From an uncultured delta proteobacterium (lineage in GTDB: Bacteria > Desulfobacterota > Desulfomonilia > UBA1062): a stretch of 64,000 nt of DNA. This document shows, piece after piece, positions 19,069 through 56,091 of this stretch. The notes under the pieces were generated by a model that did no database searches, had not been told where the DNA came from, and worked only from the letters and a program-made list of their open reading frames with translations. The position numbers were made by a program, and so were the translations under genes. The stretch spans positions 32,001 through 96,000 of the forward strand of contig CAWAUM010000013.1 in assembly GCA_963785235.1 (NCBI GenBank), in the 5' to 3' direction. The number at the start of each line of letters is the position of its first letter. Within the stretch, counting starts at the first letter, position 1.

Positions 19069-20619
19069 TCACACCATCTTCGGCCAGGAGGCCAGCAGAC
19101 GTCTGCTCATGCCCCGCTCGCCGTTGCTGCCGCGGGCAAGGGCAAGGGCCTTTATCAGCTCGGTCCTGGTGTCACGCGGGTCAATGACCTTGTCGATGAG
19201 GTTCAGACCGGCTGCCTCCCAGGGCTCGGCCTTGCGGATCATCTCCTTCATGAATGCGGTTTTCATCTCGTCGGCCCCGGGTGCGTCAGAGAAGTTCTGG
19301 CCAAAGGCGGCATTGATGGCCACATCTGCGGCCATGAATGAGATATCTGCAGTGGGCCAGGCGATAATGGAATCCGAGAGCTTCCCGCCCGCCATGTTGT
19401 GATGGGCCATGCCGTAGGACTTGCGGGTTATGAGGCTCACCACAGGCACAGTGGTGAGCTGGAGCGCCTTGATCATGGACATGATCTTCAAGGGCATCTT
19501 CCGCTCTTCTGCTTCCCTGCCCACGAGGAAACCCGGCGTGTCGTGGATGAAGATCATGGGGATGTTGAACGAATCGCACAGGCAGATGAAGGCGATGGCC
19601 TTGTCGCAGGCCCCCGGGCCCATGGCGCCCGCAGTCACCAGAGGGTTGTTGGCGAGCACGCCTACACTGTATCCGTCAAGGCGCGCCAGGCACGTGACCA
19701 GGCTGCCGTCGTAATAGGGCTTGAGCTCCAGGATGCTGTCACAATCGAAGATGAGGTTCAGTGCGTTGTGGATGTCATAGAGGGTCTTGGGGTCTTCCGG
19801 GACCGCCTCGAAGATGGATTCGATCCTTGCCCCTGAAGGATCGTCGCATGGCTTTATGGGCGGAAGCTCGTGGGCATTGCACGGCAGATAACCCAGCAGG
19901 CGGCGTATCAGCCAGAGGCACTCCTCTTCGTTCTCGGCGAACAGGTCCACCTGGCCGGTCACACGGGCATGGACCTCCCAGCCGCCGAGCTCCTCGGCTG
20001 TCGAGTTCTCGCCCGTGGCCACCTCGATGATGCGGGGCGATGTGACCGCCATGATGGCGCCCTTCACCTGTATGACCACATCCGAGATGGAGGCCTCCCA
20101 GGTGGGGCCGCCATAGCATTCGCCCATGATGGACACGATGAACGGCACCTCGCGGTTGTGGGCATCCACGATCTCCATGGCCTTCATGATGCCTGTGGCC
20201 CCCATGGTGTCGGGGATGCGCGCCCCGCCGCCGTCGCCGAGATGGACGCAGGGGAAGCCTTTGGTTGCGGCGTAGTGCAGGTTTTTAATCGCCTTGATGA
20301 CCCCTATGCGCCCGCCTGCCCCGGACATGACCGTTACATCGTCGCCTGAAACGTATACGGTGCGGTTGTCTATCAGGCCGAATCCGCACACCTTCCCGTC
20401 AGCCGGAGTCTTTGCGGCGGCCTCGGGAAGATCACTGTGGCAGAGCACGCCATACTCGTCAAAGGACCCCTTATCCAGGAGCAGGTCGATCCGCTCGCGG
20501 ACTGTAAGCCTTCCCTTGTCGTGCTGCTTCCTTACCTTCTTTTCGCCTCCCATGGCCTTGTTCTTTTCCATGCGGGAGGCAAGCTCGGCTATTTTATATG
20601 GATCGACTGGTTGGCTCAT
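19069..20619 (-). CDS. Acyl-CoA carboxylase, carboxyltransferase subunit
   Basis: GRLTVRERIDLLLD, GGARI, DTPGFLVG, IDPRDTR. Confidence 0.9.
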   Translation of the reverse strand: MSQPVDPYKIAELASRMEKNKAMGGEKKVRKQHDKGRLTVRERIDLLLDKGSFDEYGVLCHSDLPEAAAKTPADGKVCGFGLIDNRTVYVSGDDVTVMSGAGGRIGVIKAIKNLHYAATKGFPCVHLGDGGGARIPDTMGATGIMKAMEIVDAHNREVPFIVSIMGECYGGPTWEASISDVVIQVKGAIMAVTSPRIIEVATGENSTAEELGGWEVHARVTGQVDLFAENEEECLWLIRRLLGYLPCNAHELPPIKPCDDPSGARIESIFEAVPEDPKTLYDIHNALNLIFDCDSILELKPYYDGSLVTCLARLDGYSVGVLANNPLVTAGAMGPGACDKAIAFICLCDSFNIPMIFIHDTPGFLVGREAEERKMPLKIMSMIKALQLTTVPVVSLITRKSYGMAHHNMAGGKLSDSIIAWPTADISFMAADVAINAAFGQNFSDAPGADEMKTAFMKEMIRKAEPWEAAGLNLIDKVIDPRDTRTELIKALALARGSNGERGMSRRLLASWPKMV

Positions 20620-22584
20620 GGGTTGTTCTCCGTATCAATTGCTATGAGTATGGACCCCATCTTCACAAAATCACCCTGCTTCACGAAGATCTCCTTCACC
20701 ACGCCTTGCTCTACAGCAGTAATGATGTTTTCCATCTTCATGGACTCGATGATGATAAGGTCCTGGCCTTTGTTCACTCTCTGGCCCTGTTGCACCGATA
20801 CCAGTGCCACCTTGCCGTCCATGGGCGCCTCGCAGGCCCCCTTTTTATGGTGCTGGAACTCCATTGAATGGAACCGCGACAGATAGGTGAGCTGATGGTG
20901 CCCGAGGCTCAAGGAATGGAGGAACACCGTCTCCTTGTCAAGGGCATAGGAGAACTTGAGCTGCCTGCCATTGATGATGAGGGACATGGAATCAGAGTCC
21001 TTCCCGGCGACAAAGACGTCGTAGGTGTCTTTGTGGATGATAATTGTAAAGCTGTCTCCATCCTTTTTTCTGAAGTTGGCGCAATACTGAATTCCATGCA
21101 TCAGAAAACCTGCAAATTTCAAGGTGTGGTAGCCTGCCTGCCACCCCAGTTCCCGATGGCCTTCCTCGTGGTCGTTGAACCGGGCCACAATGGCGGCCAC
21201 GACGAGCACCCTCGCCTCTTCCTCCCTCAAGGCAGGTCTTTCCATGACAGGGGAGTCCTTGTCGAAAATAGTCGGTCTTGATCTGGCCCTTATGAAATGC
21301 CTCGCCCGTCACAAGGCGCGACAGGAAATCGATGTTGGTCGCCACGCCCAGTGCAGCGGTCTCATGAAGGGCCCGGTTCATCTTCCTGATGGCGTTTGCC
21401 CGGGAATCGGCGTGTGCGATCACCTTTGCCAGGAGGGGGTCGAAATCAATGGTTATCCGCGATGAGGTGGCCACACCACTGTCGGTCCGGGCACTTTTGG
21501 CAGCCTTCCACAGAATCAGATTCCCTGCAGAAGGGACAAAGTTATTATCCGGGTCTTCGGCATAGACCCTGCATTCCATGGCATGGCCGTTTATGGAGAG
21601 ATCCGCCTGGCTCACAGGCAGCGGCTCGCCTTCGGCAATGGCTATCTGCATCTCCACCAGGTCGAGGCCGGTTACGGCCTCGGTCACCGGGTGCTCCACC
21701 TGAAGCCTGGTGTTCATCTCCAGGAAGAAAAACTTTCCGTCATCGTCCAGCACGAACTCCACGGTGCCTGCGTTCGTATAGTTCACGGCTTTTGCTATGG
21801 CGATTGCCGCCTTTCCCATCTTCTTTCTCAAGGGCTCCGTCATGGCAGGAGACGGGGATTCCTCTATGAGCTTCTGATGCCTGCGCTGGACCGAGCACTC
21901 CCGCTCAGGGCAGTGGATGATCTTGCCGTGCAGGTCACCCAGGACCTGGAATTCGATATGCCGTACAGGGCTCAGGTATTTCTCAATGAGCAGGCTGTCA
22001 ATGCCGTACACGGCCAGGGACTTCTTTCGTGCAGCACGCAGCGAACCTTCCAGGAGCGAAGGGGCATCCACCCTGAAGATGCCGATGCCGCCACCGCCTG
22101 CCGAGGCCTTGATGAGGAGCGGATATCCTATGCTTAAAGCCCTTGCGGTGAGTTCCTCCATGGATTCCCCGCCCACCCTGAATCCCGGGATAACGGGAAC
22201 GCCTATCTTCTCGCAGAGTTCACGGGCTGCGATCTTGGAGCCCATAATCCTGATGGATTCCGGCGTTGGTCCGATAAACGTTATGCCCTCTGCGCAGCAG
22301 CGTGAAGCGAATTCAGGATTCTCCGAGAGGAGCCCGTAACCCGGATGGATTGCATCCGCACCGGCATCATGTGCCGCCTGGATGATCCTGTCCTGGTCAA
22401 GGTAGGCCCCGATCCCTGCCTCGCCCAGACAGATCGCCTCGTCCGCCATGTTCATGAACACGCTGCCCCGGTCAATCTGTGAATACACGGCAACGGTTGC
22501 AATCCCCAGTTTCCGGCAAGTCTTTATCACCCTGCAGGCTATTTCTCCGCGATTTGCGATCAACAGGCACTTTATCTTTTTCAT
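20616..22584 (-). CDS. Acyl-CoA carboxylase, biotin carboxylase + biotin carrier subunit (frameshift ~21265)
   Basis: IANRGEIA, HPGYG, RECSVQRRHQK and EMNTRLQVEH in one frame; ESMKME biotinylation motif in the next. Confidence 0.9.
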
Positions 22585-24034: not shown

Positions 24035-25905
24035 ATGCACATAACAAAATCCCTATCAAATCTAATTTCCAGACTTCAAAACTCAAAGTCAATATCCGGG
24101 ATTAACACATCCGAATCTAGAAAGATGTCTTTCCATGTCCTCATACAGGAGAATTCGTTTATCTTTTCTTTTATTTTCACAGGTATGTTGCTTTCTATAA
24201 TTTTATCGATTCTTCCTGTACATTATGAAACTAACGACGAATTCAGAATGATAACCATTCTGAGTGGAAATGGCGGATTCCCTGCTAGCCCCTATGTCCC
24301 ATATCTCAACCCAATACTAAGTTATGTTTTACATATTCTTTACAGAGTAAAACCATACTTTCCATGGTTTGGTGTATTCTTCTATGTCGTTTACTACTTA
24401 GGTTGGACTTTGATCTTGAGTGTCATATTCAGAACGAATGACAGATACAGTTTTATTTTAACAATTCCTATCCTTTTTTATTTTTTCTTTTTTCATTCTT
24501 CATATGTAAGTTTTACCTCGGCTTCTCTCTTTATGTCTTTCGGGGTTTTTCTCTGCACAATCGAATATTTCATCAGGAATGAAGCCCCGATAAAGAATAT
24601 CAGGATTTATTTTATATTCCTGGCTGTTTGTTTCTATCTTTCGTTCCTTCTTCGATGGGAATTGGTCCTCTATTCGCTTCTCCTTTTCTTACCCGCCGTC
24701 GTTTTCATAAAGAAAGGACGGTAATAAAAGTTCTCCCTATTCTTCTCCTGCTAGGCTTAGTGATATGTTTGAATATAGCATTTAACCACTTTATTAATTT
24801 ATCTCATCAGACATATCATGAATTCGACAAGCTGAGAATTGAGTTTCATGATACTCACAGAGGAGATTTTCATGATCGAATCACACCATATGCTCTCCAG
24901 AAAGCAGGATGGACATATAAAGATTACATAGCTTTCAGAGGCCTTTGGTTTATGCATGATAATTATACCTTCAACACAACGAATTTGAAAACATTTCTCA
25001 TAGAGAATAATCCTCGAAAAAACAGCTAAAGCTTATTTAGACAATATCATCCGCCAAGTAATAAAAAGTTATAATCGAAATAAGAATAAATCTATCTTAT
25101 TAGTAGTCTCTTTATTATCAATTCTTATTTATAGATCAACATACCTATTGCGACTCGATAAAGTTGATTTGTTAAAAATTGCAGTCTCTATAGGGACAAT
25201 TATATTAAGCGTACTGTTCTTTATGTATTATCGATTTATGCCGAGGGTTTATGGCCCACTTTATGTCTATTTGATCAGCATGTCGTATTTATTATTCAGC
25301 ATTGGAAAAGGCTCCGAACATAAAGTTATCCAGAATAACTGGATGAAATATCTTACTATTATTGTTGCAGGATCTTTAATGGCATATGCTATACTTATTG
25401 TACGTCAAGAAGTTGTTACTAATGTTCATGATCTTGACCAGTCCGCGAAATTCAGGACCGCAATCAATCAAGCTTTAACCGCATTGAAACTATTAATACT
25501 GCGTCACATCCTTTTATCATACTAATATGTGGTATTCCCTATGGCCTTCGCACTGACTTCATCCATCCTTTAATGGAATATAGAGATTTCCCCCGTATGA
25601 GAATTTTCCCAAATGGATGGTCAATATATTCGCCATATCATAAGATGGCACTAAAAAATCTTCACCTCCGCGATGGTCATGATTTTCTTAAGTGGCTTGT
25701 TGACCGAAAAGATGTGCTCTTAATGATCAATGCTTTTAATATAACCCAGGCAAATCAAGTTAACAAAATTGTATTTTTATTGAAATCTTACTACCTCAGC
25801 CATATATATCCCGGTATGAAACTGGATTTCATTCCTGTCTATGATTTTAGAAACAAGGAAGGATTGGGTCTAGTCTTTTTCCGATTAAAATCCGACCACG
25901 ATTGA
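24035..25905 (+). CDS. AT-rich polytopic membrane protein, possibly GT-C-like (split into 4 ORFs)
   Basis: Colinear ORFs 24035..24724, 24628..25029, 25148..25525 and 25573..25905; YETNDE loop after the first TM; many TM segments. Confidence 0.55.
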
Positions 25906-25951
25906 TAAAACATCATGTAGATCATATTTTGTGTTTCATTAAGAACTGAGA

Positions 25952-26026: not shown

Positions 26027-26517
26027 TAGGGGTCACTATAGAAGATTGATCCACAGCAGCTGGTTTCCAATCTATAATGAATTGGGTAAGGTTACCAGAA
26101 TTGCTATTCACACGCTTGACATCACTGAATTAAAACAGACCTTTTTCAAAAGCAAGTTGTGACAAAATAATAAATCTCCATGATATATAATAAATAAGTT
26201 GCTGATCTTAAGATCGCAAACTGTAGAGTTCCTGCCGAACTCAATATTTTGCCGCTACTGAATATTTGTAATAATAACCATCACTATTTGACTTCCCCCT
26301 CACGCTTTTCATTCATTCAAACTAAAAGCCTGTGCTTGTTCTAAAAATTAAGTTTGCTTTACCCGGATGAGTCTTTATATAGAGCCAGGTCTCATCATGA
26401 AGCCTTGCCCGTAACAATTTGATGATTATAATACTTTTGACTACTGGTTGCAAACCGACGGTCTGCACTTGGTAGGGCGAATATTGGGGTTACCCCCCCC
26501 ATGGGAGATCTTGTCAG

Positions 26518-27726
26518 ATGAAGTATATCCATGCTTTTAATAACTTGGTGGAGAAGAAAAAGATCTATCCTGATTTCCCCGTTATTGACGGCGGGGCAAG
26601 CCCTGAAGTTGTTGTGAATGGAAAAAGGTTATTGATGTTCTCTTCCAATAATTACCTGGGTCTTACATCCCATCCCAGAATAAGGAGCGGCCCATGAGGC
26701 TATTGAAAAATACGGGACAGGTTCGGGGGGTTCCCGCCTCCTATCCGGAAACCTCAAAATCCATGAAGAGGCAGAACGAAAAATTGCCGCCTTTAAGGGC
26801 GGAGAGGCTGCCATTATCTTCCCCACGGGTTATTCAGCGAATGTCGGTGCCATCTCAGGGTTCCTCGACCTGCTGAAGATTTCTCCCCGTTATTTCTTCA
26901 TGAGAAGATGCATGGTTTTTTCCGACGACTTGAATCATGCAAGCATTATTGACGGGTGCAGATTGAGCGGGGCAAAGACCGTGGTGTATCCTCACAAGGA
27001 TATGGATGTTCTGGAAGCAAAGCTGAAACGCCATCGCGCCGGCGCAAGCTTATCATAACCGACGGTGTCTTCAGCATGGATGGTGATATCGCCCCCCTTG
27101 ATCAGATAGCATACCTGGCGAAAAAATATGATGCGGTCACCATGGTGGATGAAGCCCATGCCACAGGCATTCTCGGGACTCATGGACACGGTACTATTGA
27201 GCATTTCCACCCGAAGCCCTTGAAGGACATTGCCATCATAATGGGGACTTTCAGCAAATCCGTCGGAGCCGTGGGCGGGTATGTCGTAGGATCACATGAC
27301 CTGATACATTATCTCAGGGTAGCTTCCCGGTCGTATATGTTCTCGGCAGCCATGCCCCCGGCCACTGCTGCAACCATTATTGCCGCAATCGATCTCATGG
27401 AAAGCGACCCGACCTTAAGGACGAAGTTATGGGAGAATACCAACCATTTGAAGGAAGGGTTTAACGATCTGGGATTCAATACCTTTTCCAGCGAGACCCA
27501 GATCATCCCCATACTGATCGGCAAAGACGATAAAGGGGTGGAATTCTCCCGGCGCCTGGTTGACTACGGGATATACGGGCCATGCGTCAGATGGCCTGCG
27601 GTAACAAGAAACCAGTCCAGGATCAGATTTACCGTAATGGCCTCCCACACCAGGGAGCAGATCGATTATCTTCTTGATTGCTGCAGGTCTTTAGGGAGTA
27701 AGATGAACGTGTCTATGGGGAAATGA
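26518..27726 (+). CDS. Alpha-oxoamine synthase, serine palmitoyltransferase-like (frameshifts ~26685 and ~27038)
   Basis: SNNYLGL, GSGGSRLLSG, NHASIIDG, DGVFSMDGD, DEAH and PLP-Lys motif GTFSKS. Confidence 0.8.
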
Positions 27727-28550
27727 AAATGAAGGATTTTCTTGATAAAAACGTCTATATTACCGGCGGATCTACCGGTATCGGTCTTTCCACTGCCAAG
27801 CTCCTGGCGGCAGCGGGGGCCAACGTCATCATCTCCGCCCGGACAAAAGAAAAACTTGAAACAGCCATGGAAGAGATCGAGAGCCGCCGCATCTTACAGG
27901 CGCAGCGTTTCGCCTTCCGTCAACTCGACGTGGCGGACAATACAGAAGTGAACATTGTCATGACTGAGGCTGTTCAAAACTTCGGCATCCCGGACCTCCT
28001 CATTAATAATGCCGGGCGGGCCCTGCCACGCTGTTTCGAGGAAGTCACCTTCGCGCAGTTCGACGAGACCATGAAGACCAACCTCTACGGCAGCTGGAAT
28101 ACCACCACGGTCCTCATCCCGTACATGAAGCCCGGGGGCGGAGCAATCGTCAATGTGTCCTCCCTGTGCGGCTTCATGGGGGTCTTCGGCTATACGGACT
28201 ATTGTGCCTCGAAATTCGGCATCATCGGCCTCTCGGAGGCGCTCAGGCAGGAACTGCGGCGCTACGATATCACGGTTTCCGTACTCTGCCCTCCCGATAC
28301 CGACACACCGGGATACGCCACAGAAAACATCTGTAAACCTGAGGTGACCAGGGCGCTTTCGGCCGCAGCCAAGATCATGCAGCCGGATGAAGTTGCCAGG
28401 GAGCTTGATCGAGGGATCAAACGCAAGACCTTCATCATTATCCCCGGTGTGGACGGAAAATTCATCTATTTCATGAAGCGGCACTTCCCCTTCATCGTGG
28501 AGCTGATTATGCGTCGGGGTATCTGCAAGGTACAGAAGGGGAGCGTATAG
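27723..28550 (+). CDS. 3-ketodihydrosphingosine reductase-like SDR
   Basis: TGGSTGIG, GVFGYTDYCASK and PPDTDTPGYATENICKP (KDSR-type signature); overlaps the upstream stop codon. Confidence 0.8.
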   Translation: MKMKDFLDKNVYITGGSTGIGLSTAKLLAAAGANVIISARTKEKLETAMEEIESRRILQAQRFAFRQLDVADNTEVNIVMTEAVQNFGIPDLLINNAGRALPRCFEEVTFAQFDETMKTNLYGSWNTTTVLIPYMKPGGGAIVNVSSLCGFMGVFGYTDYCASKFGIIGLSEALRQELRRYDITVSVLCPPDTDTPGYATENICKPEVTRALSAAAKIMQPDEVARELDRGIKRKTFIIIPGVDGKFIYFMKRHFPFIVELIMRRGICKVQKGSV

Positions 28551-28561
28551 CCAGTTCAACA

Positions 28562-29488
28562 ATGAAGGCATGTAATCCTGAAAAGTTACTGAGTCTTGAA
28601 GAAGGTCTCACCATCGGCATGGCCGTGCTGTGCAATCTCATCATCCTTCTTTTCATGCACCTGGGGCAGGCACAAGACATCTTTGTGCTGAACATGCTCA
28701 TCACGGCGGTCATCCTCCTGGTAGCTTGTGTCCACCGGCGTTTTCCCCACACATGGCTGCAGTTTTTCCGGGACTGGTATGTGGTTTCTTTTCTGATCAT
28801 CATCTATCTGGAGAATCGCACACTCATCCCTCTCATCAACCCCCATGAACTGGACAGCCTCGTCATGGCCGTGGACCGGTTTCTTTTTGGCGGGCACGAC
28901 CCCACAGTCCTCATGGAAAGAATAATGTACCCTGCCCTTTCGGAAATACTGCAGATATCCTATGCGAGCTTCTATTTTCTTCCGCTCTCACTGTGTGTGA
29001 TCCTCTATTCCCTCAGGGAGGCCAGGGATGACTTTCATGTTGTGGCATCCACCATATTCATGGGATTCTATCTCTCCTACATCGGGTATTACTTCACCCC
29101 GGTCCTCGGGCCGAGATTCACCATGGAACACCTGCAAAGCGTTCCCCTGAGAGGATTGTGGACCTTTGACTTTCTCAGAAACCTACTGGCACAGACTGAA
29201 GGAAGGATGTACGACTGCATGCCGAGCGGACACGCCCTCGTCTCTGTTCTCACCGTGCTTCTGTCCTGGCGATACGCCAAGAGATTTTTTCCTGTTGCCC
29301 TTGCCTGGACAGTTCTCCTGAGCTTCTCAACGGTGTACCTGCGCTATCACTATGTGAGCGACCTCATTGCAGGCATGGCGCTGGGTGTGCTGGTGTTCCA
29401 GTTCGGCCCCGGCCTCGCGGAGGCAACCATGCGCGGCACAGAGAAAGAACAGGGGATACCTGAATCGATGCAGCTCAGGAAGGAGTAA
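28562..29488 (+). CDS. PAP2-superfamily membrane protein, Aur1/IPC-synthase-like
   Basis: PVLGPR, CMPSGH and YLRYHYVSD motifs; multiple TMs. Confidence 0.75.
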   Translation: MKACNPEKLLSLEEGLTIGMAVLCNLIILLFMHLGQAQDIFVLNMLITAVILLVACVHRRFPHTWLQFFRDWYVVSFLIIIYLENRTLIPLINPHELDSLVMAVDRFLFGGHDPTVLMERIMYPALSEILQISYASFYFLPLSLCVILYSLREARDDFHVVASTIFMGFYLSYIGYYFTPVLGPRFTMEHLQSVPLRGLWTFDFLRNLLAQTEGRMYDCMPSGHALVSVLTVLLSWRYAKRFFPVALAWTVLLSFSTVYLRYHYVSDLIAGMALGVLVFQFGPGLAEATMRGTEKEQGIPESMQLRKE

Positions 29489-29539
29489 CCGGGGTGTTCC
29501 GGTTAGACGAAAGGCCCCTGGTAGCTCCGGCACGTCTTA

Positions 29540-30667
29540 TCAGGGAATAGGTCTTTCATAGATTCGATAGGTTTTGTAGAGCTCAGGGGTGAACGGTTTC
29601 AGTTCATGTATCATCTTTGTATTGGTCTCAACAATCAGCGAGCAATCCGACTCCCAGACATCCGAGAGGAGACTCTGTTCAATAATCTTCAGGTAGAAAA
29701 TCTCATCGATGTGCTGCCCCTGATATTCCGGGAGCACCCCCATGATGACGGTTCTCACCCTCTTGGTTTTTTTTGCTTCTCTCATGAACCTTAAGAGCCG
29801 CCACGGGTAGAGCCTTCCGTTTAAGATCCGTAGTGCCGGATTGACGTCCGGTATGGTGATAACGAAGCCTATGGTCTTTCCATCCTTCTCCGCAAATATG
29901 GTAAATTCAGGGGTGAGTAACATCTTCACTTCGGCAAAGAACATCTCCGTCTGTTTTTCTGTCAGCGGAAGATGGCCCCAGTTACCCTCCCAGGCGGCAT
30001 TGAAGATGTGCTGCACATCTTTCACCCTTTTTGCCAGGTCCCTCTTGTCGAGGTTTTTGAATACCGTGTCCGTTGTGGAGAGAAGGCCCTTTCTCACTTC
30101 ATCCAGATAGGGTACATGTTGGGCGTAATTGACGCGCTTCACCAGGAAACAGTGCCAGTCGATGCATTTTACAAACCCGCATGCCTCGGCAAGATCCTTA
30201 TAATAAGGGGCAAAGTGGAAAAGACCCACTGATGGGATGTTCCCCTCCCCTTCCACCTCGAAACCAACCGAGTCGTAGATGGCGAAGCTCTGCGGGCCGT
30301 TCATAATCTTCTTGCCCTTGTGCTTGAGCCAGGAAGATGCGGTATCGAACAGTGCACGGGCAACCTCCGGGTCATTGACGGCCTCGAAGAACCCGAAGAA
30401 CCCCGTGCCGTTGTCATATTTGTTTTCATAAAGATGATTCACGTGGGCTGTGATACGGCCGACAAGCCTGCTGTTTTTATATGCCAGAAAAAACTCTGCC
30501 TCACCTATCTCAAAAAAGTATCCTTTTTCCCTGTCGAAAAAATTTTTCTGGTCACTGATGATAGGTGGGATCCATGCCGGATCATTCTCGTAGATCCGGG
30601 CTGTCCATGGGAACATCATGAAGTCTTTCATCATGCCCTTAGTATCAGCGCGCCTCACCTCAACCAT
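29540..30667 (-). CDS. Tandem-GNAT protein, bacterial ceramide synthase (bCerS)-like
   Basis: IYENDPAWIPP, VGRITA, GFFGFFE, AWEGNWG, PDVN, MGVLPEYQ, KTYRIYE pattern. Confidence 0.7.
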   Translation of the reverse strand: MVEVRRADTKGMMKDFMMFPWTARIYENDPAWIPPIISDQKNFFDREKGYFFEIGEAEFFLAYKNSRLVGRITAHVNHLYENKYDNGTGFFGFFEAVNDPEVARALFDTASSWLKHKGKKIMNGPQSFAIYDSVGFEVEGEGNIPSVGLFHFAPYYKDLAEACGFVKCIDWHCFLVKRVNYAQHVPYLDEVRKGLLSTTDTVFKNLDKRDLAKRVKDVQHIFNAAWEGNWGHLPLTEKQTEMFFAEVKMLLTPEFTIFAEKDGKTIGFVITIPDVNPALRILNGRLYPWRLLRFMREAKKTKRVRTVIMGVLPEYQGQHIDEIFYLKIIEQSLLSDVWESDCSLIVETNTKMIHELKPFTPELYKTYRIYERPIP

Positions 30668-30809: not shown

Positions 30810-30974
30810 ATGAGACAGACCATAAATGCCACCCAGGCTGTAAGAACCTTTTCGGAGCTTCTCAATGAGATTAAATACAAGGGAACGACATATACCATAG
30901 AGCGATCAGGTAAACCTATTGCATGTTATCTACACATTTGCATGCCCCTCTTTTTCGATGATTATGAAAAATAA
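30810..30974 (+). pseudogene. Truncated Phd/YefM-type antitoxin
   Basis: MRQTINATQAVRTFSELLNEIKYKGTTYTIERSGKPIA, then reads into repeat copy 4. No toxin gene follows. Confidence 0.7.
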
Positions 30975-31005
30975 TGGCCTGGAATAACTATTGGCTCTGG
31001 CCTCT
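30921..31005 (-). repeat. Dispersed intergenic repeat, copy 4
   Basis: Reverse complement: GCCAATAGTTATTCCAGGCCATTATTTTTCATAATCATCGAAAAAGAGGGGCATGCAAATGTGTAGATAACATGC. Confidence 0.85.
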
Positions 31006-31040: not shown

Positions 31041-34000
31041 TTACCATCCATCAAGTACCCTCCGGATAGTCTTAGCCAATACTTTCATTTCTATGGGTTT
31101 CATGACAAATTCTCGAATGCCGATCTTTTCTGTCTTCTCCTTCGAGATATGTTCACTATACCCAGAGCATAGGATGATTGGGATGTCATGCCGGATCTCC
31201 ATAAATTTCTGAGCCAGTCTGTCCCCTGTCATACCCGGCATTGTCATGTCTGTAATAATCAGGTCATATTTGTCAGGACTATCCTGAAAGAGTTTCAGTG
31301 CCTCAACACTGCTTGTTCTCGTTTCTATAGTATATCCTAATTTGCTGAGCATTTTCTCTGCTAGATTTACCAAGACGGGTTCATCGTCTACAAAGAGAAT
31401 ATGCTCCTTTCCTGTCGGGATTGTCTCTTCCTCTTCATGCGTCACTACCTCTTTCATGGATTCAATTTCAGGCAAAAATATTTCAAAAGACGTACCCTTA
31501 CCAGGGGTGCTCTTGCATATTATATTGCCACCATGACTTATCACTATCCCATGAACAACCGACAACCCCAGACCGGTTCCTCGACCCATTTCCTTTGTAG
31601 TGAAATAAGGCTCGAAGATCCGATCAAGAATTTCAGAGGGTATCCCATGGCCGGTATCACTGACCGAAAGTATGAGATAGTTTCCAAGATGAAGGTTCAA
31701 TTCGTGTGCCTCAGTCTCTTTATTGATATTCACTCTCTTCAGACTTATCTTAAGTACACCTCCGGTCTTATCCATGGCATGAGATGCATTTGTACAGAGA
31801 TTCAGAAGAATCTGATTTATCTGCGTAGGATTCGACATGATCAGGCCGGAATCGGTTAGGTCCTGTTGAATATCAATGGTTGTGGGTATAACAGAACGCA
31901 GCATCTTGATGGAATCCTTAACAACAGTACGCAGCGCAATAGGTGAATATTCGACATCTGTTTTTCTGCTAAATGTAAGGATGTGTTTTGCAAGCTCTTT
32001 GGCTCGATCAGCTGCTTTGAGAACTTCTTTGATTTCTCTCTTTGCCTTCTGAGGTTCTGATACATCTTCTATAGCAAGCTCGGAATATCCGATGATAGCT
32101 GAGAGGATATTATTGAAGTCATGTGCAATACCCCCTGCCAGCGTACCTATTGATTCCATTTTTTGAGCCTGTGTAAGTTGAGCTTCCAGCCTGTCTTTTT
32201 CTTTTTCAGCCCGTTTGCGTTCTGTGATGTCCTGGATTACGCCCATAGCACCAACAACCTTACCACTAGAGTCCCGCAACGGCTCCGTTGAAACATTTAC
32301 GTAGATAGCCCGACCATCCTTAGTCTGCCTCATGACCTCGCTATTACTGTATCCAGAACCTGATAACACTTTGGAAATAAGGGCCTTGAACTCACCCCAC
32401 TTCTCTTCAGGTACGATGGGATTGTACTGGCCAATTGCCTCTTTTTTACTCCACCCAAAAATGCGTTCAGCAGCAGGGCTCCAGCTCGTGACTCTCAAAT
32501 CATGATCAAGGGTGAAAATCGCCAGAGGTGAAGCATCAATGATTGCTTGCAGCGCCTGGTTTGTTTTTTGGAGATCTTCCTCCGCTCTCCTGCGGTCGGT
32601 AATATCGACAAAGGTAACTACAATCTGCGCCAGTTCATTATTCTCATCTGAAACCGGAAATGCGCTCACTAAAACCCAAACATCTTCCTTTTTGGTGGAA
32701 CGATGTACTCCCATGACAGCGTTCCAAAAAGGCTTCCTTGTAGCCAGTACTCTCATGACCGGGTATTCTTCCAGAGGCATGGCGGTTCCATTCTCCAGGA
32801 AAAAATGCCAGTCCGGGTCGATTACCTGTTTTCCAAGGATCTGCTCCTCTGTAAGGCCGAGAAGCTCCTGTGCCTGTCGATTGCACGTCTGTATTTGTGT
32901 ATCAACCCCATGCACGACAACTGCAGCCTGAATATTCTGAATCAGCTCACGATACTTTTTCTCGCTGCTACGCAGTGCTTCCTCTGCGTGCTTGCGCTCG
33001 GTGATATCTCGAGTTACGCCCATGATGCCTGAGGGCTCGCCATTCTTATTATAGACGATGTTCATGGTTGCCTCTGTCCAGACGGTGGAGCCATCCTTAC
33101 GGATCATCTCGAGTTCAGAGGTGAATGACCAATTGGGTCCGTGACGATGCCCACTTAACTCCAGAGTTAATTCTCTATCGAGAATAGTTTTGGCCTTCTG
33201 ATAGGATTCTGGTGTCAGGATCTGATCCATGGTCTGTTTCAATGCCTCTTCTGCGGTGTATCCTCTAAGTTGCTGCACAGACGGGGTCACGAAGGTGTAG
33301 CCCAGATTTATGTCAAAGAACCAAATAACATCACGAACATTCTCTCCAAGGATGCGGTATTTCTCCTCACTCTTTCGTAGTGCCTCCTCAGCGAGTTTCC
33401 GCTCGGTAATGTCAGTATTGGTTCCCTCAAAATACAGGATGTTCCCTTGTGTATCATGGACCACATGGACATTGATGGAAATCCAGAACCTGGTCCTGTC
33501 CCTTCGGAATATCTCCACCTCATACCCTTCCACCTTATCGTATTCACGGAGCAGGCGCACCATCTCCTGGCGGTCTGCTGGATTTACGTAGAGCTCCTGG
33601 CCGATATCCTTTACAGAATCGATCATCTCCTGTGGCGAACCGAATCCAGACATCCGCGCAAAGGCAGGGTTCACACTCAGATACCTGCCCTCTGGTGTAC
33701 TCTGGTAGATACCTTCGGTCGCGTTCTCAAAGATCGCCCGATACTTTTCCTCGCTTTCAGCAAGCGCCTCTTCTGCCCTGCGCTTGTCCGTAATATCCCG
33801 GATGCACTCGATTGCCCCGATGACTTGCCCTGAGAAATCATATATGGGATGCGCCCACCCTGAAAGGAATCGTTTCTCCCCCTTGACCACCGGCACATCG
33901 GTTTCACCGATGAGGAGATCGCCTTTGCGCATGATGTTGTAATATATCTTCTCGACTTCTTCCTTGGGCATGAGTACGAGATCGATAAGAATCGGCCGTC

Positions 34001-35243
34001 TTTCACCATAGAAGGGGATAGCATACTCATAATCACCCTTTCCGATCATGTCACTGGGGCTGTAACCAGTCATGTTCTCTATGGCCTTGTTCCAAGCAGT
34101 TATCCTGCCCTGTTTGTCAATGACCAGGGTTGCATCGGGAAGGAACTCAATGATATCAGATAGATGTCGCTCTGATTCTCTTAGCGCCTCTTCTGCTTGC
34201 CTACGCTCGGTTATATCTTCAAATGTAGTATATACCTGGTAGGGCTTATCTTCTCCTGGCTGGAATTGTGGTACTGCATCAATTTCAATCCATTTATACG
34301 TCACTTCCTGCTGATTTTTAATTCCCATGATTGAATTTAATACAGGCTTACCAGTCTGCATTACGATCATAGCCGGGTGTGTTTCACCGGGATATGGTGA
34401 TCCATCTTCATGAATAGCTTCCCAGTTGGGATCAAGAGAGGTATTTCCCTTCAATTGATCTAGATTACATCTAAGAATACGTTCCGCAGCAGGGTTTGCA
34501 TCGATGATCCGACCATCAGAAACCTGATAAACAACACCTTGTACCATTGATTCAAACAGATGACGGTGTTTTTTTTCACTTTCTCGCAAGGATATTTCAC
34601 GTGCATTGAGAACCATATGGGACTTTTGTAAGTAGACATAAAATATTAACAGAAACACCAGTAAGAATGTCAGGGACATGGGTAGGGCTGCATCGGAGAT
34701 CACATCCCATTTCCAGTCAGCTGCTTCGACATCCATCCCAATAACCAAGATCGCTTTTCCTGTGATAGGATCAATCACTGGTGAGAAAGCACTGACAAAG
34801 GTCCCATATTCATCTCTATAAGGACCTACAGTTATTGCTTTACAAGTTAGAAAAACTGATCTTAGTTTTTCAGGTGGATTTTTGTATATAGTTCCTGGTG
34901 GAGAAGCATCCGGATCATTTACTTGGAGATTTTCAGGACCAAAAATTATAGTACTACCTTTCTGAACCACACTATACAGGCTGCGGCAGCCTATATCTTT
35001 TGCTAACTTTTTCATCCAATCTTCCAGTTTCATAAAGCTAGGATTGGTACGATCGTTCAGGGTAAAAGAGAGGGCTTTTACGTCATTTTGATCCACACTG
35101 TCCGCTATAATCTGAATACGGAGAAGAAGATTTTCACGGAGTTGTCTGTCACTTCTTTTGGCTATCCACGATGAAAATAAGATTCCAGACATGGCTATTA
35201 CTATTACTAAGACCCATACCCATCCTTTTCTAAAGGAAGTCAT
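31041..35243 (-). CDS. Hybrid sensor histidine kinase (periplasmic domain, ~6 PAS, HisKA, HATPase, REC)
   Basis: Repeated DITER PAS ends, AHDFNNIL, GTGLGL, TDMTMPGM. Confidence 0.95.
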   Translation of the reverse strand: MTSFRKGWVWVLVIVIAMSGILFSSWIAKRSDRQLRENLLLRIQIIADSVDQNDVKALSFTLNDRTNPSFMKLEDWMKKLAKDIGCRSLYSVVQKGSTIIFGPENLQVNDPDASPPGTIYKNPPEKLRSVFLTCKAITVGPYRDEYGTFVSAFSPVIDPITGKAILVIGMDVEAADWKWDVISDAALPMSLTFLLVFLLIFYVYLQKSHMVLNAREISLRESEKKHRHLFESMVQGVVYQVSDGRIIDANPAAERILRCNLDQLKGNTSLDPNWEAIHEDGSPYPGETHPAMIVMQTGKPVLNSIMGIKNQQEVTYKWIEIDAVPQFQPGEDKPYQVYTTFEDITERRQAEEALRESERHLSDIIEFLPDATLVIDKQGRITAWNKAIENMTGYSPSDMIGKGDYEYAIPFYGERRPILIDLVLMPKEEVEKIYYNIMRKGDLLIGETDVPVVKGEKRFLSGWAHPIYDFSGQVIGAIECIRDITDKRRAEEALAESEEKYRAIFENATEGIYQSTPEGRYLSVNPAFARMSGFGSPQEMIDSVKDIGQELYVNPADRQEMVRLLREYDKVEGYEVEIFRRDRTRFWISINVHVVHDTQGNILYFEGTNTDITERKLAEEALRKSEEKYRILGENVRDVIWFFDINLGYTFVTPSVQQLRGYTAEEALKQTMDQILTPESYQKAKTILDRELTLELSGHRHGPNWSFTSELEMIRKDGSTVWTEATMNIVYNKNGEPSGIMGVTRDITERKHAEEALRSSEKKYRELIQNIQAAVVVHGVDTQIQTCNRQAQELLGLTEEQILGKQVIDPDWHFFLENGTAMPLEEYPVMRVLATRKPFWNAVMGVHRSTKKEDVWVLVSAFPVSDENNELAQIVVTFVDITDRRRAEEDLQKTNQALQAIIDASPLAIFTLDHDLRVTSWSPAAERIFGWSKKEAIGQYNPIVPEEKWGEFKALISKVLSGSGYSNSEVMRQTKDGRAIYVNVSTEPLRDSSGKVVGAMGVIQDITERKRAEKEKDRLEAQLTQAQKMESIGTLAGGIAHDFNNILSAIIGYSELAIEDVSEPQKAKREIKEVLKAADRAKELAKHILTFSRKTDVEYSPIALRTVVKDSIKMLRSVIPTTIDIQQDLTDSGLIMSNPTQINQILLNLCTNASHAMDKTGGVLKISLKRVNINKETEAHELNLHLGNYLILSVSDTGHGIPSEILDRIFEPYFTTKEMGRGTGLGLSVVHGIVISHGGNIICKSTPGKGTSFEIFLPEIESMKEVVTHEEEETIPTGKEHILFVDDEPVLVNLAEKMLSKLGYTIETRTSSVEALKLFQDSPDKYDLIITDMTMPGMTGDRLAQKFMEIRHDIPIILCSGYSEHISKEKTEKIGIREFVMKPIEMKVLAKTIRRVLDGW

Positions 35244-35436: not shown

Positions 35437-35563
35437 TTTTCTAATCTATGGTATCCAGGCTACTAGTTCAGATCGCCGGGTTTCGCATGTTATCAACGCT
35501 TTTCCATGCCCCGCTTTTTCGATGATTATCAGAATAAATCTAGGCTCTGGAATAACCATTGGT
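35437..35563 (-). repeat. Dispersed intergenic repeat, copy 5
   Basis: Reverse complement: ACCAATGGTTATTCCAGAGCCTAGATTTATTCTGATAATCATCGAAAAAGCGGGGCATGGAAAAGCGTTGATAACATGC...CCATAGATTAGAAAA. Confidence 0.85.
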
Positions 35564-35586
35564 CTGAACGAACCCTATCATTGCTA

Positions 35587-39843: not shown

Positions 39844-42100
39844 TCATTCCCCAAATGGAAATATGTGCTTAAGGGCCTTCCATAAACCGGGCATACCTTC
39901 CTCTGAGGCCTCTTTCGGCTCGGTACCTTTCATATAAGGCAGCGTGACCGGGGAGTCTGTCCAGCTTGTGGCTCGTTTGCCGTTTATGGAATCAATAGCG
40001 CATAAGGTCACATCATCGGGTACGTCCCATGGTTTGGGCACGGCAAGTCGGGCAACAATCCTGGCGGCAAAAGGCATGGCCCCTGTTGCACCCGTATAGC
40101 CGATAGCCCTGAAGGCATCATCCCCGAGCCAGGTAATGACCACCATGTCTTTCGTATAGGCGGCAAACCATGAATCTCTCATCTCATTGGTGGTTCCTGT
40201 CTTGGCGCACATCCCGTCAGGCATACCAAAAGTCTTGGCCGACTTTGCCGTACCACTGCGGATTGTCTCCTGAAGTGCTGTGTTGATAAGATATGTGGGC
40301 CCGGGGTCGAGAACCCTCTGGGGTTGCTTGTGAGCTGACCGCCAGAACACGGCCCCATGTTCGTCTACAATAGCCTCCAGACTCCATGACTCAACCCTTA
40401 AACCCCCGGTGGCAAAGACCGAATACATACCTGCAACATCAAGGGGCGAACAATCAATGGCTCCAAGCAACAGTGCCGGCTGCTTGAGCACGGTTGAACG
40501 CGGAAGCACATTCTTCACCTCAGGAACAATGCTCTCAAGTCCCACAGCGAGCCCGAGCCGGACAGTAGCCAGATTGTAGGACTGGGCCAGGGCATTCAAG
40601 AGCAAGATGTTGCCGTGACTTACCTTGTCAAAATTCATTGGCGCCCAGATGTTCATTATCTCGAGCTTTATTGTCAGGGGGCTGTCATCCAGGATGCTCG
40701 ACAGTGAGTAGCCGCCCTTGAGGGCAGAGTAATAGATAATGGGTTTAATGAGAGATCCGATACTTCGTCTGATGGAGGTGACCCTGTTGAACTGGGATGT
40801 TCCATAGTCCCTGCCGCCCACCATGGCCTTTATTGCGCCGGTTGCAGGATTGACAATGACCGAGGCAACCTGGATGTTCTTTGCAAGTGATGCTGTTCCA
40901 CTTTCCAAGACGTCTTCCATGATCCTTTGCATATTCATGTCAAGGGTCGTGAAGATACGTAATCCGCCTTTTGTGAGAAATTCCTCTTCAGGATAGAGCG
41001 CCCGGGCCGAAGACAGGACATGATCGATAAAGAACGGGGCCTGCCTTGCAGGTTTGATGAAGGAGACTACGCTTAAGGGTTTGTGCACTGCCTGGTCGTA
41101 TTGGGCTGATGTGATCTTGCCTTGCTCTCTCATAACGGCCAGGACCGTATTTCTCCTCGCCATCGCCATCTTCGGATGCGTATATGGGGAGTAGATGTTC
41201 GGCGCACGAATGAGGCCCACGAGCAAGGCTGATTCATGCAGGGCAAGATCAGTGAGATCCTTATCGAAGAAGAGCTTTGAGGCCCTGCCGAACCCATAGA
41301 TGCCTGCAGGACCGAAGCGCCCAAGGTAGATCTCGTTCATGTACATGGTGAGGATCTCATCCTTGGTAAAGACAATCTCCATGATGGAAGACAGCCATAT
41401 CTCCTTGAGCTTCCGGCTCAATGTCCTCTCATGCGTAAGGAACAGGTTCTTCACGAGCTGCTGGGTTATGGTGGAGCCGCCCTCAACCACCTGGGCGTGG
41501 AACACATCCGCAAGCAGCGCCCTTAACATGGACCTTATATCGATGCCTGAGTGTTCGTAAAACCTTCTGTCTTCAACGCACAAGAGGGCATTAATCAATT
41601 GCTCCGGGCAATCCTACGTTTGATGAGCTCTCTGTCCTCAAACCCGGCATCGTAAACGGTTGCAATGCATTCAGGCTCCACACCGGGCCGATGCAATTTC
41701 CTGGCGGTTTTTTTCAGAGATGATCGTCTTTATCTGATTTCCATCCAGGAACACCCTTACCTTTCGAGCCTACCTGGACACCATCCGGATATTCGAATGG
41801 ATGGAGATAGATGATGATGCCATCTTTGAATAGATGATACTGGCCCGGCGATGCCACGGTGGAAGAACTGCGGTATCCCAGATGTGCAAGCCTGGATATC
41901 AGGCCCGTTCGTCTGATGTCCAGCCCTGGGGCAAGATCAAAGGGAGCGCTGTAGATCCTGGTGGGCAGATGCCAAAGGGACCCGGTGTTGATCTTCATCA
42001 TCTCCCGATAGACGTTGACCGTTACTACTGCCCCATAAAGAATACAGAAAAATCCCAGTGCAAGGATTATCGACAGGGCAATTTTTTTTGTGCGTTTCAC
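39844..42100 (-). CDS. mrcB: Class A penicillin-binding protein PBP1B-like (frameshifts ~41600-41730)
   Basis: N-terminal TM and UB2H-like segment; EDRRFYEH, GGSTITQQL; SLIK, SYN and KTG motifs. Confidence 0.85.
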
Positions 42101-53939: not shown

Positions 53940-54349
53940 TATTTTTCATTATCCTATGTACTGAAAGCCCCCGTTTGTTAACGCCCTATCGACCTTATCA
54001 TTACTATCCCGGATTGTTGCAAGCTCTGACGAATCTGATTCTGGTTTTCCCCCATCCATACAATTGTTGCCAACCTGCCTTACACGTTTAACTATGACTT
54101 TGATAATTGATAATTAAACTATTATAGTTATTAATTGTGGCTGCTGTAAAAAAGCATAATCCAATGAATTATACTGATAGTATTCTAGCATAAATAGTAT
54201 TCTTATAAAATAAGATAAACCTGTTTCATGGCGTGGTCAATCAATGTTAATATCTTCACATGCTCAGGTTTTTTGTAAAAACATCACACCAGATAAAAAA
54301 AGATATACTACTTAATGAATTTCTCCAATCAGCGCTTGAGTCTGCCAAG

Positions 54350-54652
54350 ATGGAGTATACATCGGACAAGCCCATCGCGGAGGCCGCTTTGGCCGGAACA
54401 CGGCTACGCCTGAGGCCCATCCTCATGACCAGCTTCGCCTTCATCCTGGGCTGCGTGACGCTGGCCACGGCTATGGGTGCAGGCATCATTGCCTGCAGGG
54501 TCATGGGAGCTGAAGTCATCCGTGACATGCCGGCGGCCACCGGCATCGCCATCTTCCTCATCCCGGTAACATTCACCCTGATCCAGAGACTCGCCCAGCA
54601 GGGAGATGACAGCAAAGCACCTGAGAATAAGGAGGTCAGCCCCCATGCATAA
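54350..54652 (+). pseudogene. C-terminal fragment of a second RND permease
   Basis: RLRLRPILMTSFAFILG; stop overlaps the OMF start; N-terminus absent. Confidence 0.8.
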
Positions 54653-56091
54653 AACCCTACTCATATCCTTTGTCGCAGTGCTGCTTGCCGGATGCGCCCT
54701 GGGGCCCGACTACATACGCCCGGCCGTTGATACGCCCCAGACATGGAGATATGAGGTGAAAGAGGCGAAAGAGGTGGCTAATACCCGGTGGTGGGAGCAG
54801 TTCGGCGACCCGGTCCTGAACGAGATGATTCTGAATGCGCTCAAAGAGAACAAAGACCTCAGGATCGCTGCCGCACGGGTGGATGAATACGAAGGCCGCC
54901 TCATGGTGAGCCGCGCCGACCTCTTTCCCAAGGCGGATGCATCGTACAAGGCCAGCAAGAATCGTATCTCCGAGCACAGCTCAAGTAGAATCTCATCACT
55001 CATTGCCAACCCCTATAACCAGTACCAGGCCGGCTTCGGCGCCTCCTGGGAGCTCGATATCTGGGGACGCTACCGCAGGGCCGACGAGGCAGCCCGCGCA
55101 GACCTCCTGGCCACCGAGGAAGCCAGGCAGGGGACGATCCTCTAGCCTCTGCTCGTCCGTAGCCGTGGGATATGTCAACCTCAGGGACCTTGACAACCAG
55201 CTCATCATAGCCAGGCGCACGGCAGAAAACACGAAAGGGACCCTGGATCTGTTCCAGAGCCGTGCGAAAGGCGGGGTCATATCCGACCTTGAGCTGAGCC
55301 AGGTGAAATCCCAGTATGCCCTCACGTTGACAAGGATCCCGGCCATAGAGAAGCTCATCAGCCAGCAGGAAGATGCGCTGTCCATCCTACTGGGCAGGAA
55401 TCCCGGTGCCATAGTCCGGGGAAAGACCATCGCCGAGCTTATGCTGCCGATGGTTCCCCAGGGCCTGCCGTCCGATCTCCTGGAGCGAAGGCCCGATATC
55501 CGTCAGGCGGAGCAGGGACTCATTGCAGCCAATGCACGCATCGGGGAGGCCCGGGCATTATACTACCCGAATATCTCTTTGACCGGCGCCTTCGGGTGGT
55601 CCAGCTCCCACCTCTCCGACCTCCTCACCTCTCCTGCCAGGGTATGGAACTGGGGCGGCGCCATCGGCGCGCCGATCTTCGCGGGCGGCGCCATCAGAGG
55701 ACAGAACAAGGCGGCTGAGGCCATGCAGCAGGAGACCCTTTTCGCCTATCAGAAGACCGTCCAGAATGCCTTCCGGGAGGTGAATGACTCCCTGATGAAT
55801 CAGAAGTATACCCGGGAGCAGCTCGACGCCCAGAAGATGCAGGTGGATGCGCTCCGCGATTATGCCCGCATCGCCAGGCTCAGGTTCGACAACGGTTACA
55901 CGAGCTACATCGAGGTGCTCGATGCCGAGAGCAGCCTCTTCGAGGCCGAGCTCTCCTACTCCCAGACACAGGGCACCCTCTTCTCTGATCTGGTCGGAAT
56001 ATACAAGACCATGGGCGGCGGATGGGTGACTGAGGCGGACAGGCTTTCAACACCCCGGGACAACAAGGAAACTCAGAACATGAACCAGTGA
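54645..56091 (+). CDS. Outer membrane efflux factor, NodT/OprM family (frameshift ~55140)
   Basis: LAGCALGPDY, SWELDIWG, LPSDLLERRPDI, KTMGGGW. Confidence 0.9.

Follow-up and report, generated by a model that had tools for sequence, protein, structure and literature searches.

The analysed stretch of 64,000 nucleotides (the window) belongs to a genome assembly of an uncultured delta proteobacterium (GCA_963785235.1, contig CAWAUM010000013.1). The list of open reading frames (ORFs) and stop-to-stop translation revealed four genes at positions 26518-30667, predicted to encode four enzyme types of sphingolipid synthesis: an alpha-oxoamine synthase (AOS), a short-chain dehydrogenase/reductase (SDR), a PAP2 membrane protein and a tandem-GNAT N-acyltransferase. 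In the reading that we regard as the probable one, the compactness of this locus stems from a deletion joint, with the PAP2 and GNAT genes being an old pair and the synthase and SDR genes a patchy accessory. A preliminary description of the same DNA had proposed a hybrid route from serine palmitoyltransferase (Spt) through 3-ketosphinganine reductase (KDSR) and bacterial ceramide synthase (bCerS) to a head-group transferase. This proposal stood when read gene by gene at the family level, but not at the level of an operon. The gene set is real and sensibly annotated, with members of known families, but does not form a conserved hybrid operon.

The stop codon of the synthase gene and the start codon of the SDR gene overlap in the sequence ATGA, and a gap of 11 nt separates the SDR gene from the PAP2 gene. 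Of the tight coupling claimed for these three genes, the synthase/SDR overlap held, whereas the closeness of SDR and PAP2 was seen on this contig only. A second contig (C8, 33 kb) of the source assembly (G000, 13 contigs) carries a copy of window positions 26913-28559 with 97% identity. This copy comprises the 3' two-thirds of the synthase gene and the SDR gene (SDR copy 95% identical), and the equivalent of window positions 26235-26912 is deleted from C8, leaving the synthase 5'-truncated. The SDR copy is followed on C8 by a convergent gene for a 1413-aa BcrAD/BadFG-type activase, a 2570-aa polyketide synthase (PKS, domain order ER-KS-AT-ACP-KR-DH) and a phosphopantetheinyl transferase (PPTase), and then by genes for a 281-aa protein (no Pfam family), a FemAB-like protein, an ABC transporter and a B12-binding radical-SAM protein. 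The contig ends 43 nt past the radical-SAM stop codon, exactly at the ATGA that opens the PAP2 gene.

The homology of the window to C8 and to the SDR flank of a same-genus relative (G003) stops at the joint, positions 28551-28561. The same B12-radical-SAM gene directly precedes PAP2 in G003 and in the closest relative (G011, 88% complete). In G003, the synthase gene lies about 21 kb from PAP2 with the same island in between, and the SDR gene is reduced to its last ~185 bp. The arrangement in C8, G011 and G003 thus indicated that the SDR/PAP2 joint of the window corresponds to a loss of about 19-20 kb, the joint representing either a second haplotype or a second copy. Hence, the compact order would have arisen through this loss in the haplotype of the contig, and not as an evolved operon; the lost stretch would have held the activase, PKS, PPTase, FemAB-like, ABC transporter and B12-radical-SAM genes. 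A GGAG box is found 8 nt before the PAP2 start codon in G011 and is replaced in the window.

The island upstream of PAP2 was located, in its fuller haplotype, at G000:C8:43-18642, in G003:C2 (loci L013 and L047) and in G011:C293 (L057), its transporter being of the ABC-2 type. The G003 island also holds an EptA-like sulfatase-fold gene. At positions 11606-14007 of L047, the intact G003 synthase gene is preceded by genes for a 308-aa protein, consisting only of the catalytic domain of 2-oxoacid dehydrogenase acyltransferases and without counterpart in G000, and for an iron-type alcohol dehydrogenase. B12-radical-SAM genes also adjoin the GNAT-PAP2 pair in two further loci (L059 and L060).

Strong PAP2 orthologues were found in 10 of 14 same-genus genomes and in two other genera of the window's family (f1), and in none of 16 genomes of the sister family (f2). 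All 12 loci of relatives show the GNAT gene convergent to PAP2, and neither AOS nor SDR was matched in any of them. Conservation of the cluster, suggested in the preliminary description as a check, was therefore not observed, the G003 genes themselves being 21 kb apart. Among the relatives' loci, a radical-SAM operon lies upstream of PAP2 in G003 and G011 only. No conserved third gene was detected beside the PAP2-GNAT pair in 16 loci, with a B12-radical-SAM gene recurring in three of them.

We have surveyed 83 genomes of the class (at least 90% complete) for these genes. In f2, AOS is present in 44/44 genomes and a distant GNAT homologue in 43/44, and all 43 GNAT carriers have an AOS. In f1, GNAT was found in 17 of 38 genomes, 13 with the close type (64-90% identical) and four with the distant type. 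Fourteen of these 17 carriers (92-99% complete) have no AOS at E ≤ 1e-20. The three carriers with AOS are G002, G003 and G004, and the G004 AOS as well as one G002 copy score as BioF. The best matches to the bioF hidden Markov model (HMM) in five GNAT carriers reached 24-30 bits. Five genomes of unstated completeness, reached via named loci and at most three of them additional, gave no AOS at E ≤ 1e-10, and G011 (at its 88% completeness) has neither an AOS match nor a close SDR. The PAP2 and GNAT genes are thus an old, conserved pair in the family, independent of the synthase in most carriers. The synthase and SDR genes are a patchy accessory of the G000/G003 lineage only, damaged somewhere in every copy examined: three gaps in the window synthase, the 5' truncation of the C8 synthase and the deleted SDR of G003. 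No examined genome has both genes intact side by side.

The synthase had been described as an oxoamine synthase with a GTFSKS motif. Both the family and the motif, which contains the pyridoxal-phosphate lysine and lies at nt 27244, agreed with our analysis, but the gene is not a single ORF, being spread over three frames (26518-26697, 26684-27058 and 26953-27726). The three-frame reading follows from single bases missing after 26681, 26685 and 27036 when compared with the intact G003 orthologue (448 aa, 92% identical at the nucleotide level). The alignment shows exactly three gap letters and no others, and they produce the stops at 26695 and 27056. Each of the three pieces matches Pfam Aminotran_1_2 or NCBIfam AOS models, with the matched model positions following on from one piece to the next, and the third missing base is present in both the G003 and C8 copies. 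Programmed frameshifting was set aside, by reading alone, the breaks being plain single-base gaps relative to intact relatives.

For the G003 orthologue, the alignment to solved structures of Spt, Kbl and BioF extends over the full length, and the best matches in the Protein Data Bank (PDB) are Spt of Sphingobacterium (312 bits) and BioF/Kbl of Thermus (309 bits). Its highest NCBIfam score was for TIGR01825 (BioF/Kbl-related, 448.6), below the cut-off of that model. A tree comprised 43 GNAT-linked synthases along with 12 synthases of f2 and the E. coli proteins BioF, Kbl and Spt; AOS matches with fewer than 330 aligned residues were omitted. In this quick search with long branches, the synthase fell, by a weak placement, on the same side as E. 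coli Spt and the GNAT-linked synthases, and its nearest sequences are GNAT-linked synthases (47% identity). G003 has a separate bioB-AOS(bioF)-bioA cluster on its contig C17, with that AOS being only 35% identical to the locus synthase, and neither bioA nor bioB was found above family cut-offs genome-wide in G000 or G011. The earlier statement that no bio genes lie nearby could, for bioA and bioB, be extended to the whole source genome. We have rejected BioF identity on the grounds of the separate G003 cluster and the G000 genome without bioA/bioB. Kbl identity is unlikely, the ATGA overlap being with a KDSR-type reductase and not with a threonine dehydrogenase. In summary, sequence comparison identifies an alpha-oxoamine synthase that is not BioF, its membership of Spt being not secure.

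The SDR gene encodes a protein with a Pfam adh_short score of 173 bits and with the nucleotide-site motif TGGSTGIG at residue 14, the active-site motif YCASK at residue 160 and, as noted before, PPDTDTPG at residue 190. The latter we take to be typical of KDSR. When the C-terminal 101 aa were compared with 177,635 PDB sequences, the sole match was the TSC10 3-ketosphinganine reductase (8jat, E 0.0019). With the full-length protein, generic SDRs outscored TSC10, for which reason the evidence for KDSR-likeness is only moderate; at that strength, the protein resembles a 3-ketosphinganine reductase in sequence. SDR homologues with the same C-terminal motif (50-67% identical) are present in the AOS-less f1 genomes G007, G009, G012, G014, G015, G019 and G024. 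KDSR-like SDR paralogues adjoin an epimerase-fold, NAD-dependent gene in L049 (G003:C10, 9123-12450) and L048 (G015:C17), that is, in genomes or loci without an oxoamine synthase; in L049 the paralogue also lies beside genes for HMG-CoA reductase and an ArnT-like glycosyltransferase. Identity between these epimerases of G003 and G015 and the oxidoreductase of the E. coli spt cluster is no more than 24-26%.

The PAP2 protein matched the Pfam families PAP2_3 (PF14378, 80.4 bits), PAP2 (PF01569, 48.4 bits) and PAP2_C (PF14360, 31.9 bits). The two motifs previously reported were both recovered, PSGH at residue 221 and STVYLRYHYVSD at residue 256, the latter providing H263 and D267. The alignment columns of H224, H263 and D267 are invariant in 36 PAP2 homologues, and the phosphatase C1 motif K-x6-RP is absent from the protein. 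The AlphaFold2 (AF2) model (pLDDT 88.6) was searched with Foldseek, and its only PDB matches at E ≤ 0.001 were the inositol phosphorylceramide (IPC) synthases 9vj4 (E 1.5e-4, TM 0.61/0.66) and 9ivc (E 3.1e-4), with TM values ranging from 0.54 to 0.66. The IPC synthases outranked PAP2 phosphatases and SMSr, which came fourth (TM 0.33-0.38). This model-based comparison, considered together with the motifs, suggests an Aur1/IPC-synthase-like protein and a candidate phospho-head-group transferase. MIPS is present in G000 and G003 and was not found in the PAP2 carriers G006, G007 and G024 (98-99% complete). Given this distribution, the head group is probably not inositol in general.

The convergent tandem-GNAT gene of the preliminary description was confirmed. 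The AF2 model of its product (pLDDT 93.6) best matched solved tandem-GNAT proteins, and the protein shares 32% identity with E. coli YghO over 383 columns (BLASTP, E 4e-61), with an hhalign probability of 100% over 364 columns. NCBIfam has no family for it, Pfam gave only a weak PF00583 match of sub-threshold quality and the ESM Atlas returned only generic GNAT clusters. The available part of PMC9386255 names yghO, together with Caulobacter CC_1154, for the acyl-CoA N-acyltransferase that acts in dihydroceramide synthesis. The neighbours of yghO in E. coli strain FDN-24 bear the annotations spt, acyl carrier protein, NAD(P)-dependent oxidoreductase and fatty acyl-AMP ligase. Based on these comparisons, the GNAT is a full-length YghO homologue of the bCerS family, and N-acylation of a long-chain base is its predicted activity.

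This family counts 6153 representative clusters at E ≤ 0.001, and we have inspected its context in 80 named loci from many phyla. An AOS match lies within 10 kb in 50 of the 80 loci, and in 45 the gene immediately upstream, on the same strand, is a full AOS ORF (median gap 86 nt). An epimerase-fold (CerR-like) gene is found beside GNAT in 32 loci, and this cluster matches the oxidoreductase of the E. coli spt cluster (E 1e-34 to 1e-42). A PAP2 gene lies downstream in 17/80 loci, and a CDP-alcohol phosphatidyltransferase gene is present in 10/80. The nine named loci closest to the window GNAT have AOS within 10 kb in none and PAP2 in six, and the GNAT keeps residues that are near-invariant across AOS-linked and AOS-less clades. 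When the E. coli spt-cluster oxidoreductase was used as query for CerR, the best match in all of G000 reached 75 bits and was generic-epimerase-like, while the cluster-linked ones scored 120-143 bits. This agrees with the earlier remark that no CerR was seen in the window.

We infer from these assignments a route that is plausible for the strain or a recent ancestor. In its first step, the synthase would form a 3-keto long-chain base by condensation of an acyl thioester and an amino acid, which is probably serine; the SDR would reduce the keto group. The GNAT would then N-acylate the reduced base, and the PAP2 enzyme would transfer a phospho-head group from a glycerophospholipid to the ceramide.

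Several observations weigh against our reading. In the essential rpoC gene of G000 (G000:C3:149409-149678, outside the window), a surplus base that lies in no homopolymer (CTC[A]GTC) breaks the reading into two frames, while rpoB is whole. This split shows that single-base indel errors occur in the assembly. Single-base indels were also seen relative to both G011 and G003 at 21264 and 47248, and relative to relatives near 41770 (about 12.5 kb aligned with G011, 92-96% identical). The first lies in a region (20616-22584, minus strand) where biotin carboxylase and biotin carboxyl carrier protein appear as two overlapping ORFs with a break near 21264. The break is due to one extra base relative to G011, and the two would be one fused protein without it. 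Thus, the three bases missing from the synthase may be assembly errors. A 474-nt environmental contig from public run X3, spanning 26549-27020 with six mismatches (~98.7% identical), is whole at the first break and carries both bases missing there; the second break, at 27036, was not covered by near-identical public contigs among the matches listed from four runs. The synthase dN/dS relative to G003 is 0.14 (396 codons; GNAT 0.17, PAP2 0.29), which shows purifying selection until very recently, and any inactivation of the synthase must therefore be very recent. If the gaps are errors, this haplotype has the full gene set and the working pathway stands. Also on this side of the balance, the G003 orthologue scored 410 against a cut-off of 640 for CFB-Spt and 428.9 for bioF, just over the cut-off of 426.45; the synthase is about as similar to E. 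coli Kbl (36%) as to E. coli Spt (37%); its branch is long and only weakly separated from BioF/Kbl (support 73-87); and no public contig among the matches listed from the four runs bridges the SDR/PAP2 joint.

Other frames in the window are also interrupted. At 54260-56091 (plus strand), a TolC-like outer-membrane factor (gene 54606-56091) is read in two overlapping frames with its OEP repeat split, and the ORF before it corresponds to no more than the C-terminal ~75 residues of an AcrB-type pump. These breaks are probably further frame errors or broken genes.

The indel errors, the intact allele in the near-identical contig and the low dN/dS are what one would expect of a working compact operon in which the missing bases are consensus errors and a phosphosphingolipid is made by Spt, KDSR, bCerS and Aur1-like enzymes without CerR. 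The catalytic motifs are all present, and with a best CerR-like match as weak as 75 bits a KDSR-type reductase would be needed. We consider this explanation possible but rather doubtful. Three deletions in 1.2 kb exceed the background of about one indel per 4-8 kb seen elsewhere, although errors do cluster. The truncation of the C8 copy and the deletion of the G003 SDR indicate that decay of the module is real in the lineage, and the deletion took the native upstream region of PAP2, including the G011-type GGAG box. As the assembly also has a frameshift in the essential rpoC, the three gaps may be either a real lesion or assembly errors.

A second alternative, to which we also give a minor chance, is that the PAP2-GNAT pair has no relation to the synthase, acting on a salvaged sphingoid base or another amino lipid, while the synthase and SDR belong to an SgaAB-like PKS route. 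The absence of AOS from 14 of 17 f1 carriers, against its presence in 43 of 43 f2 carriers, speaks for such independence, as do the low bioF-HMM scores in five carriers, the nine closest named loci (no AOS in nine, PAP2 in six) and the lack of a conserved third gene. Sphinganine synthesis by a PKS together with an AOS has been described, as far as the available part of PMC12134224 goes. However, the GNAT retains the near-invariant residues common to AOS-linked and AOS-less clades, AOS-GNAT-PAP2 operons exist in other phyla (L085, L089, L100 and L125), and in the only module-bearing lineage of the genus the module is found no more than 21 kb from the pair and points into it.

It is improbable that the SDR/PAP2 joint is an assembly chimera or a collapsed repeat, the real PAP2 being preceded by the radical-SAM operon as on C8. 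The end of C8 exactly at the first four bases of PAP2 and the radical-SAM-then-PAP2 order of G011 would fit such an error, and the lack of a bridging public contig among the matches listed means that a two-copy or chimeric assembly has to be considered. On the other hand, the joint has no long repeat that would account for a mis-join, only a few bases being shared, and the 1.65-kb synthase-SDR repeat lies 18.6 kb from PAP2 on C8. Moreover, a contig that ends where its likeness to another begins is the usual sign of a real branch between two haplotypes or copies. Finally, that the synthase is a BioF or Kbl in a coincidental neighbourhood is very unlikely: the marginal bioF score of the G003 orthologue, its sub-cut-off top score for TIGR01825 and the equal similarity to E. 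coli Kbl and Spt are outweighed by the separate G003 bio cluster with its 35%-identical AOS, the lack of bioA/bioB above cut-off in G000 and G011, the ATGA overlap with a KDSR-type reductase instead of a threonine dehydrogenase and the 47%-identical GNAT-linked neighbours.

Table 1. Positions and basis of the features assigned at the locus and immediately upstream of it (window coordinates).
Feature	Positions	Strand	Basis
Alpha-oxoamine synthase (Spt-like, not BioF), three-frame reading	26518-27726	+	Pfam, NCBIfam, G003 orthologue
First frame break: one base short after 26681, one after 26685	26681-26686	+	G003 alignment, X3 contig
Second frame break: one base short	27036-27037	+	G003 and C8 copy both carry the extra base
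Intact classical SDR, 3-ketosphinganine-reductase type, 275 aa	27723-28550	+	adh_short, motifs, TSC10 match
Joint between duplicated synthase-SDR segment and conserved PAP2-GNAT pair	28551-28561	+	Comparison with C8, G003 and G011
Aur1/IPC-synthase-like PAP2 membrane protein, 308 aa; candidate phospho-head-group transferase	28562-29488	+	Pfam, motifs, AF2/Foldseek
Tandem-GNAT N-acyltransferase, YghO/CC_1154 (bCerS) family, 375 aa	29540-30667	-	BLASTP, hhalign, fold, family context
Rearranged upstream region, patches 88-95% identical to contig C8	22689-26234		Contig comparison

The surroundings of the locus (Table 1) showed further features. A low-GC (0.35) stretch of 1.8 kb, at about 24076-25911, is absent from the C8 counterpart and holds four ORFs of 110-229 aa with no Pfam match; it may represent a mobile insert in a degraded state. 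The next gene past GNAT (31041-35243, minus strand) encodes a hybrid histidine kinase of 1400 aa that comprises at least five PAS domains as well as a receiver domain and has paralogues of 65-70% identity on contigs C1, C3 and C5. A repeat of about 80 nt (copies 76-86% identical) was found at 35485-35565 and 30921-30999, on C1, C3, C7, C9 and C13, as well as in the relatives G003 and G011, and resembles a miniature inverted-repeat transposable element (MITE) or a repetitive extragenic palindromic (REP) element.

We have compared the locus with known systems. The proteobacterial dihydroceramide pathway, as presented in the available parts of PMC9386255 and PMC11087976, uses Spt, AcpR, AasR, the epimerase-fold reductase CerR (CC_1164) and the N-acyltransferase bCerS (CC_1154/YghO), and PMC11087976 also gives the localisation of Spt, bCerS and CerR. 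As far as these sources go, the window resembles this pathway in its full-length YghO homologue and in a synthase of the same AOS family, and in other phyla the GNAT family sits in Spt-GNAT-CerR-like clusters. It differs in that the window has no acyl carrier protein, acyl-ACP synthetase or clear CerR, in that its reductase is a KDSR-type classical SDR, and in that the subclade of its GNAT is not synthase-linked. The one-strand Spt-bCerS-(CerR)-PAP2 operons of Gemmatimonadota and other phyla (L085, L089, L100 and L125) likewise have GNAT and PAP2 adjoining, together with an oxoamine synthase. They carry an epimerase-fold reductase, whereas the window has a convergent GNAT, a KDSR-type SDR and a secondary joint.

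The mixture of enzyme types called hybrid is not new in kind, since a bacterial KDSR and an AUR1 homologue have been described in Bacteroides. In B. thetaiotaomicron, these are BT_0972 (available part of PMC9278070) and the AUR1-like phosphatidylinositol (PI)-dihydroceramide synthase BT_1522, which belongs to an inositol-lipid cluster (available part of PMC9246714). To the extent covered by these sources, Bacteroides shares with the window a KDSR-type SDR and an AUR1-type PAP2 enzyme beside a soluble Spt, a likeness at the level of enzyme types; the Bacteroides genes are scattered, and the head group in the window's family is probably not inositol in general. The PAP2 protein has the fold of the yeast Aur1-Kei1 IPC synthase and sphingomyelin-synthase family (9ivc, 9vj4 and 8ijq; TM 0.54-0.66 to the IPC synthases) and shares with it the PSGH and ST-YL--HY--D motifs and the absence of the phosphatase K-x6-RP. 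Unlike yeast Aur1, it is shorter (308 aa), has no Kei1 partner and shows only 15-17% identity. PKS-derived sphingolipids are represented by SgaAB of Pseudomonas fluorescens MYb115 (PMC12134224). By the description in the available part of that source, the C8/G003 locus is similar in having an iterative-type PKS and a PPTase near an oxoamine synthase, but its PKS is separated from the synthase by the convergent 1413-aa activase gene and is absent from the window.

Much of what the locus implies is already in print: the sphingolipid potential of anaerobes including Desulfobacterota (PMC11334938), bacterial KDSR, a bacterial AUR1 homologue and PKS-derived sphingolipids. The available part of PMC11334938 reports Spt-like genes in metagenome-assembled genomes of 38 phyla, with Desulfobacterota among the potential producers, and states that bCerS and CerR are often encoded away from Spt. 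If the route works, an anaerobic deltaproteobacterial-type lineage would join the predicted makers of phosphosphingolipids. A synthase-coupled KDSR-type reductase would then be paired with a bCerS-type acyltransferase, and this would bear on the dispute over whether reduction or acylation comes first in bacteria.

More tentatively, the f1 anaerobes (Thermodesulfobacteriota-type) and Spirochaetota-labelled relatives may maintain the GNAT and Aur1-like pair under purifying selection, often with a KDSR-like SDR, without AOS, the window representing a rare lineage in which an Spt-like/KDSR-like module and a PKS island were inserted beside the pair. The reasons for such an AOS-less pair are a matter of speculation, and might include an Spt-free route to long-chain bases, salvage from partners or an undescribed N-acyl phospholipid. 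The observation worth following is that a ceramide-synthase-type and an Aur1-type enzyme are kept as a pair without any Spt. Spt serves as the metagenome marker for sphingolipid producers, yet the downstream pair is widely kept without it. Either this marker misses producers or salvagers, or the GNAT and PAP2 families have a second lipid product.

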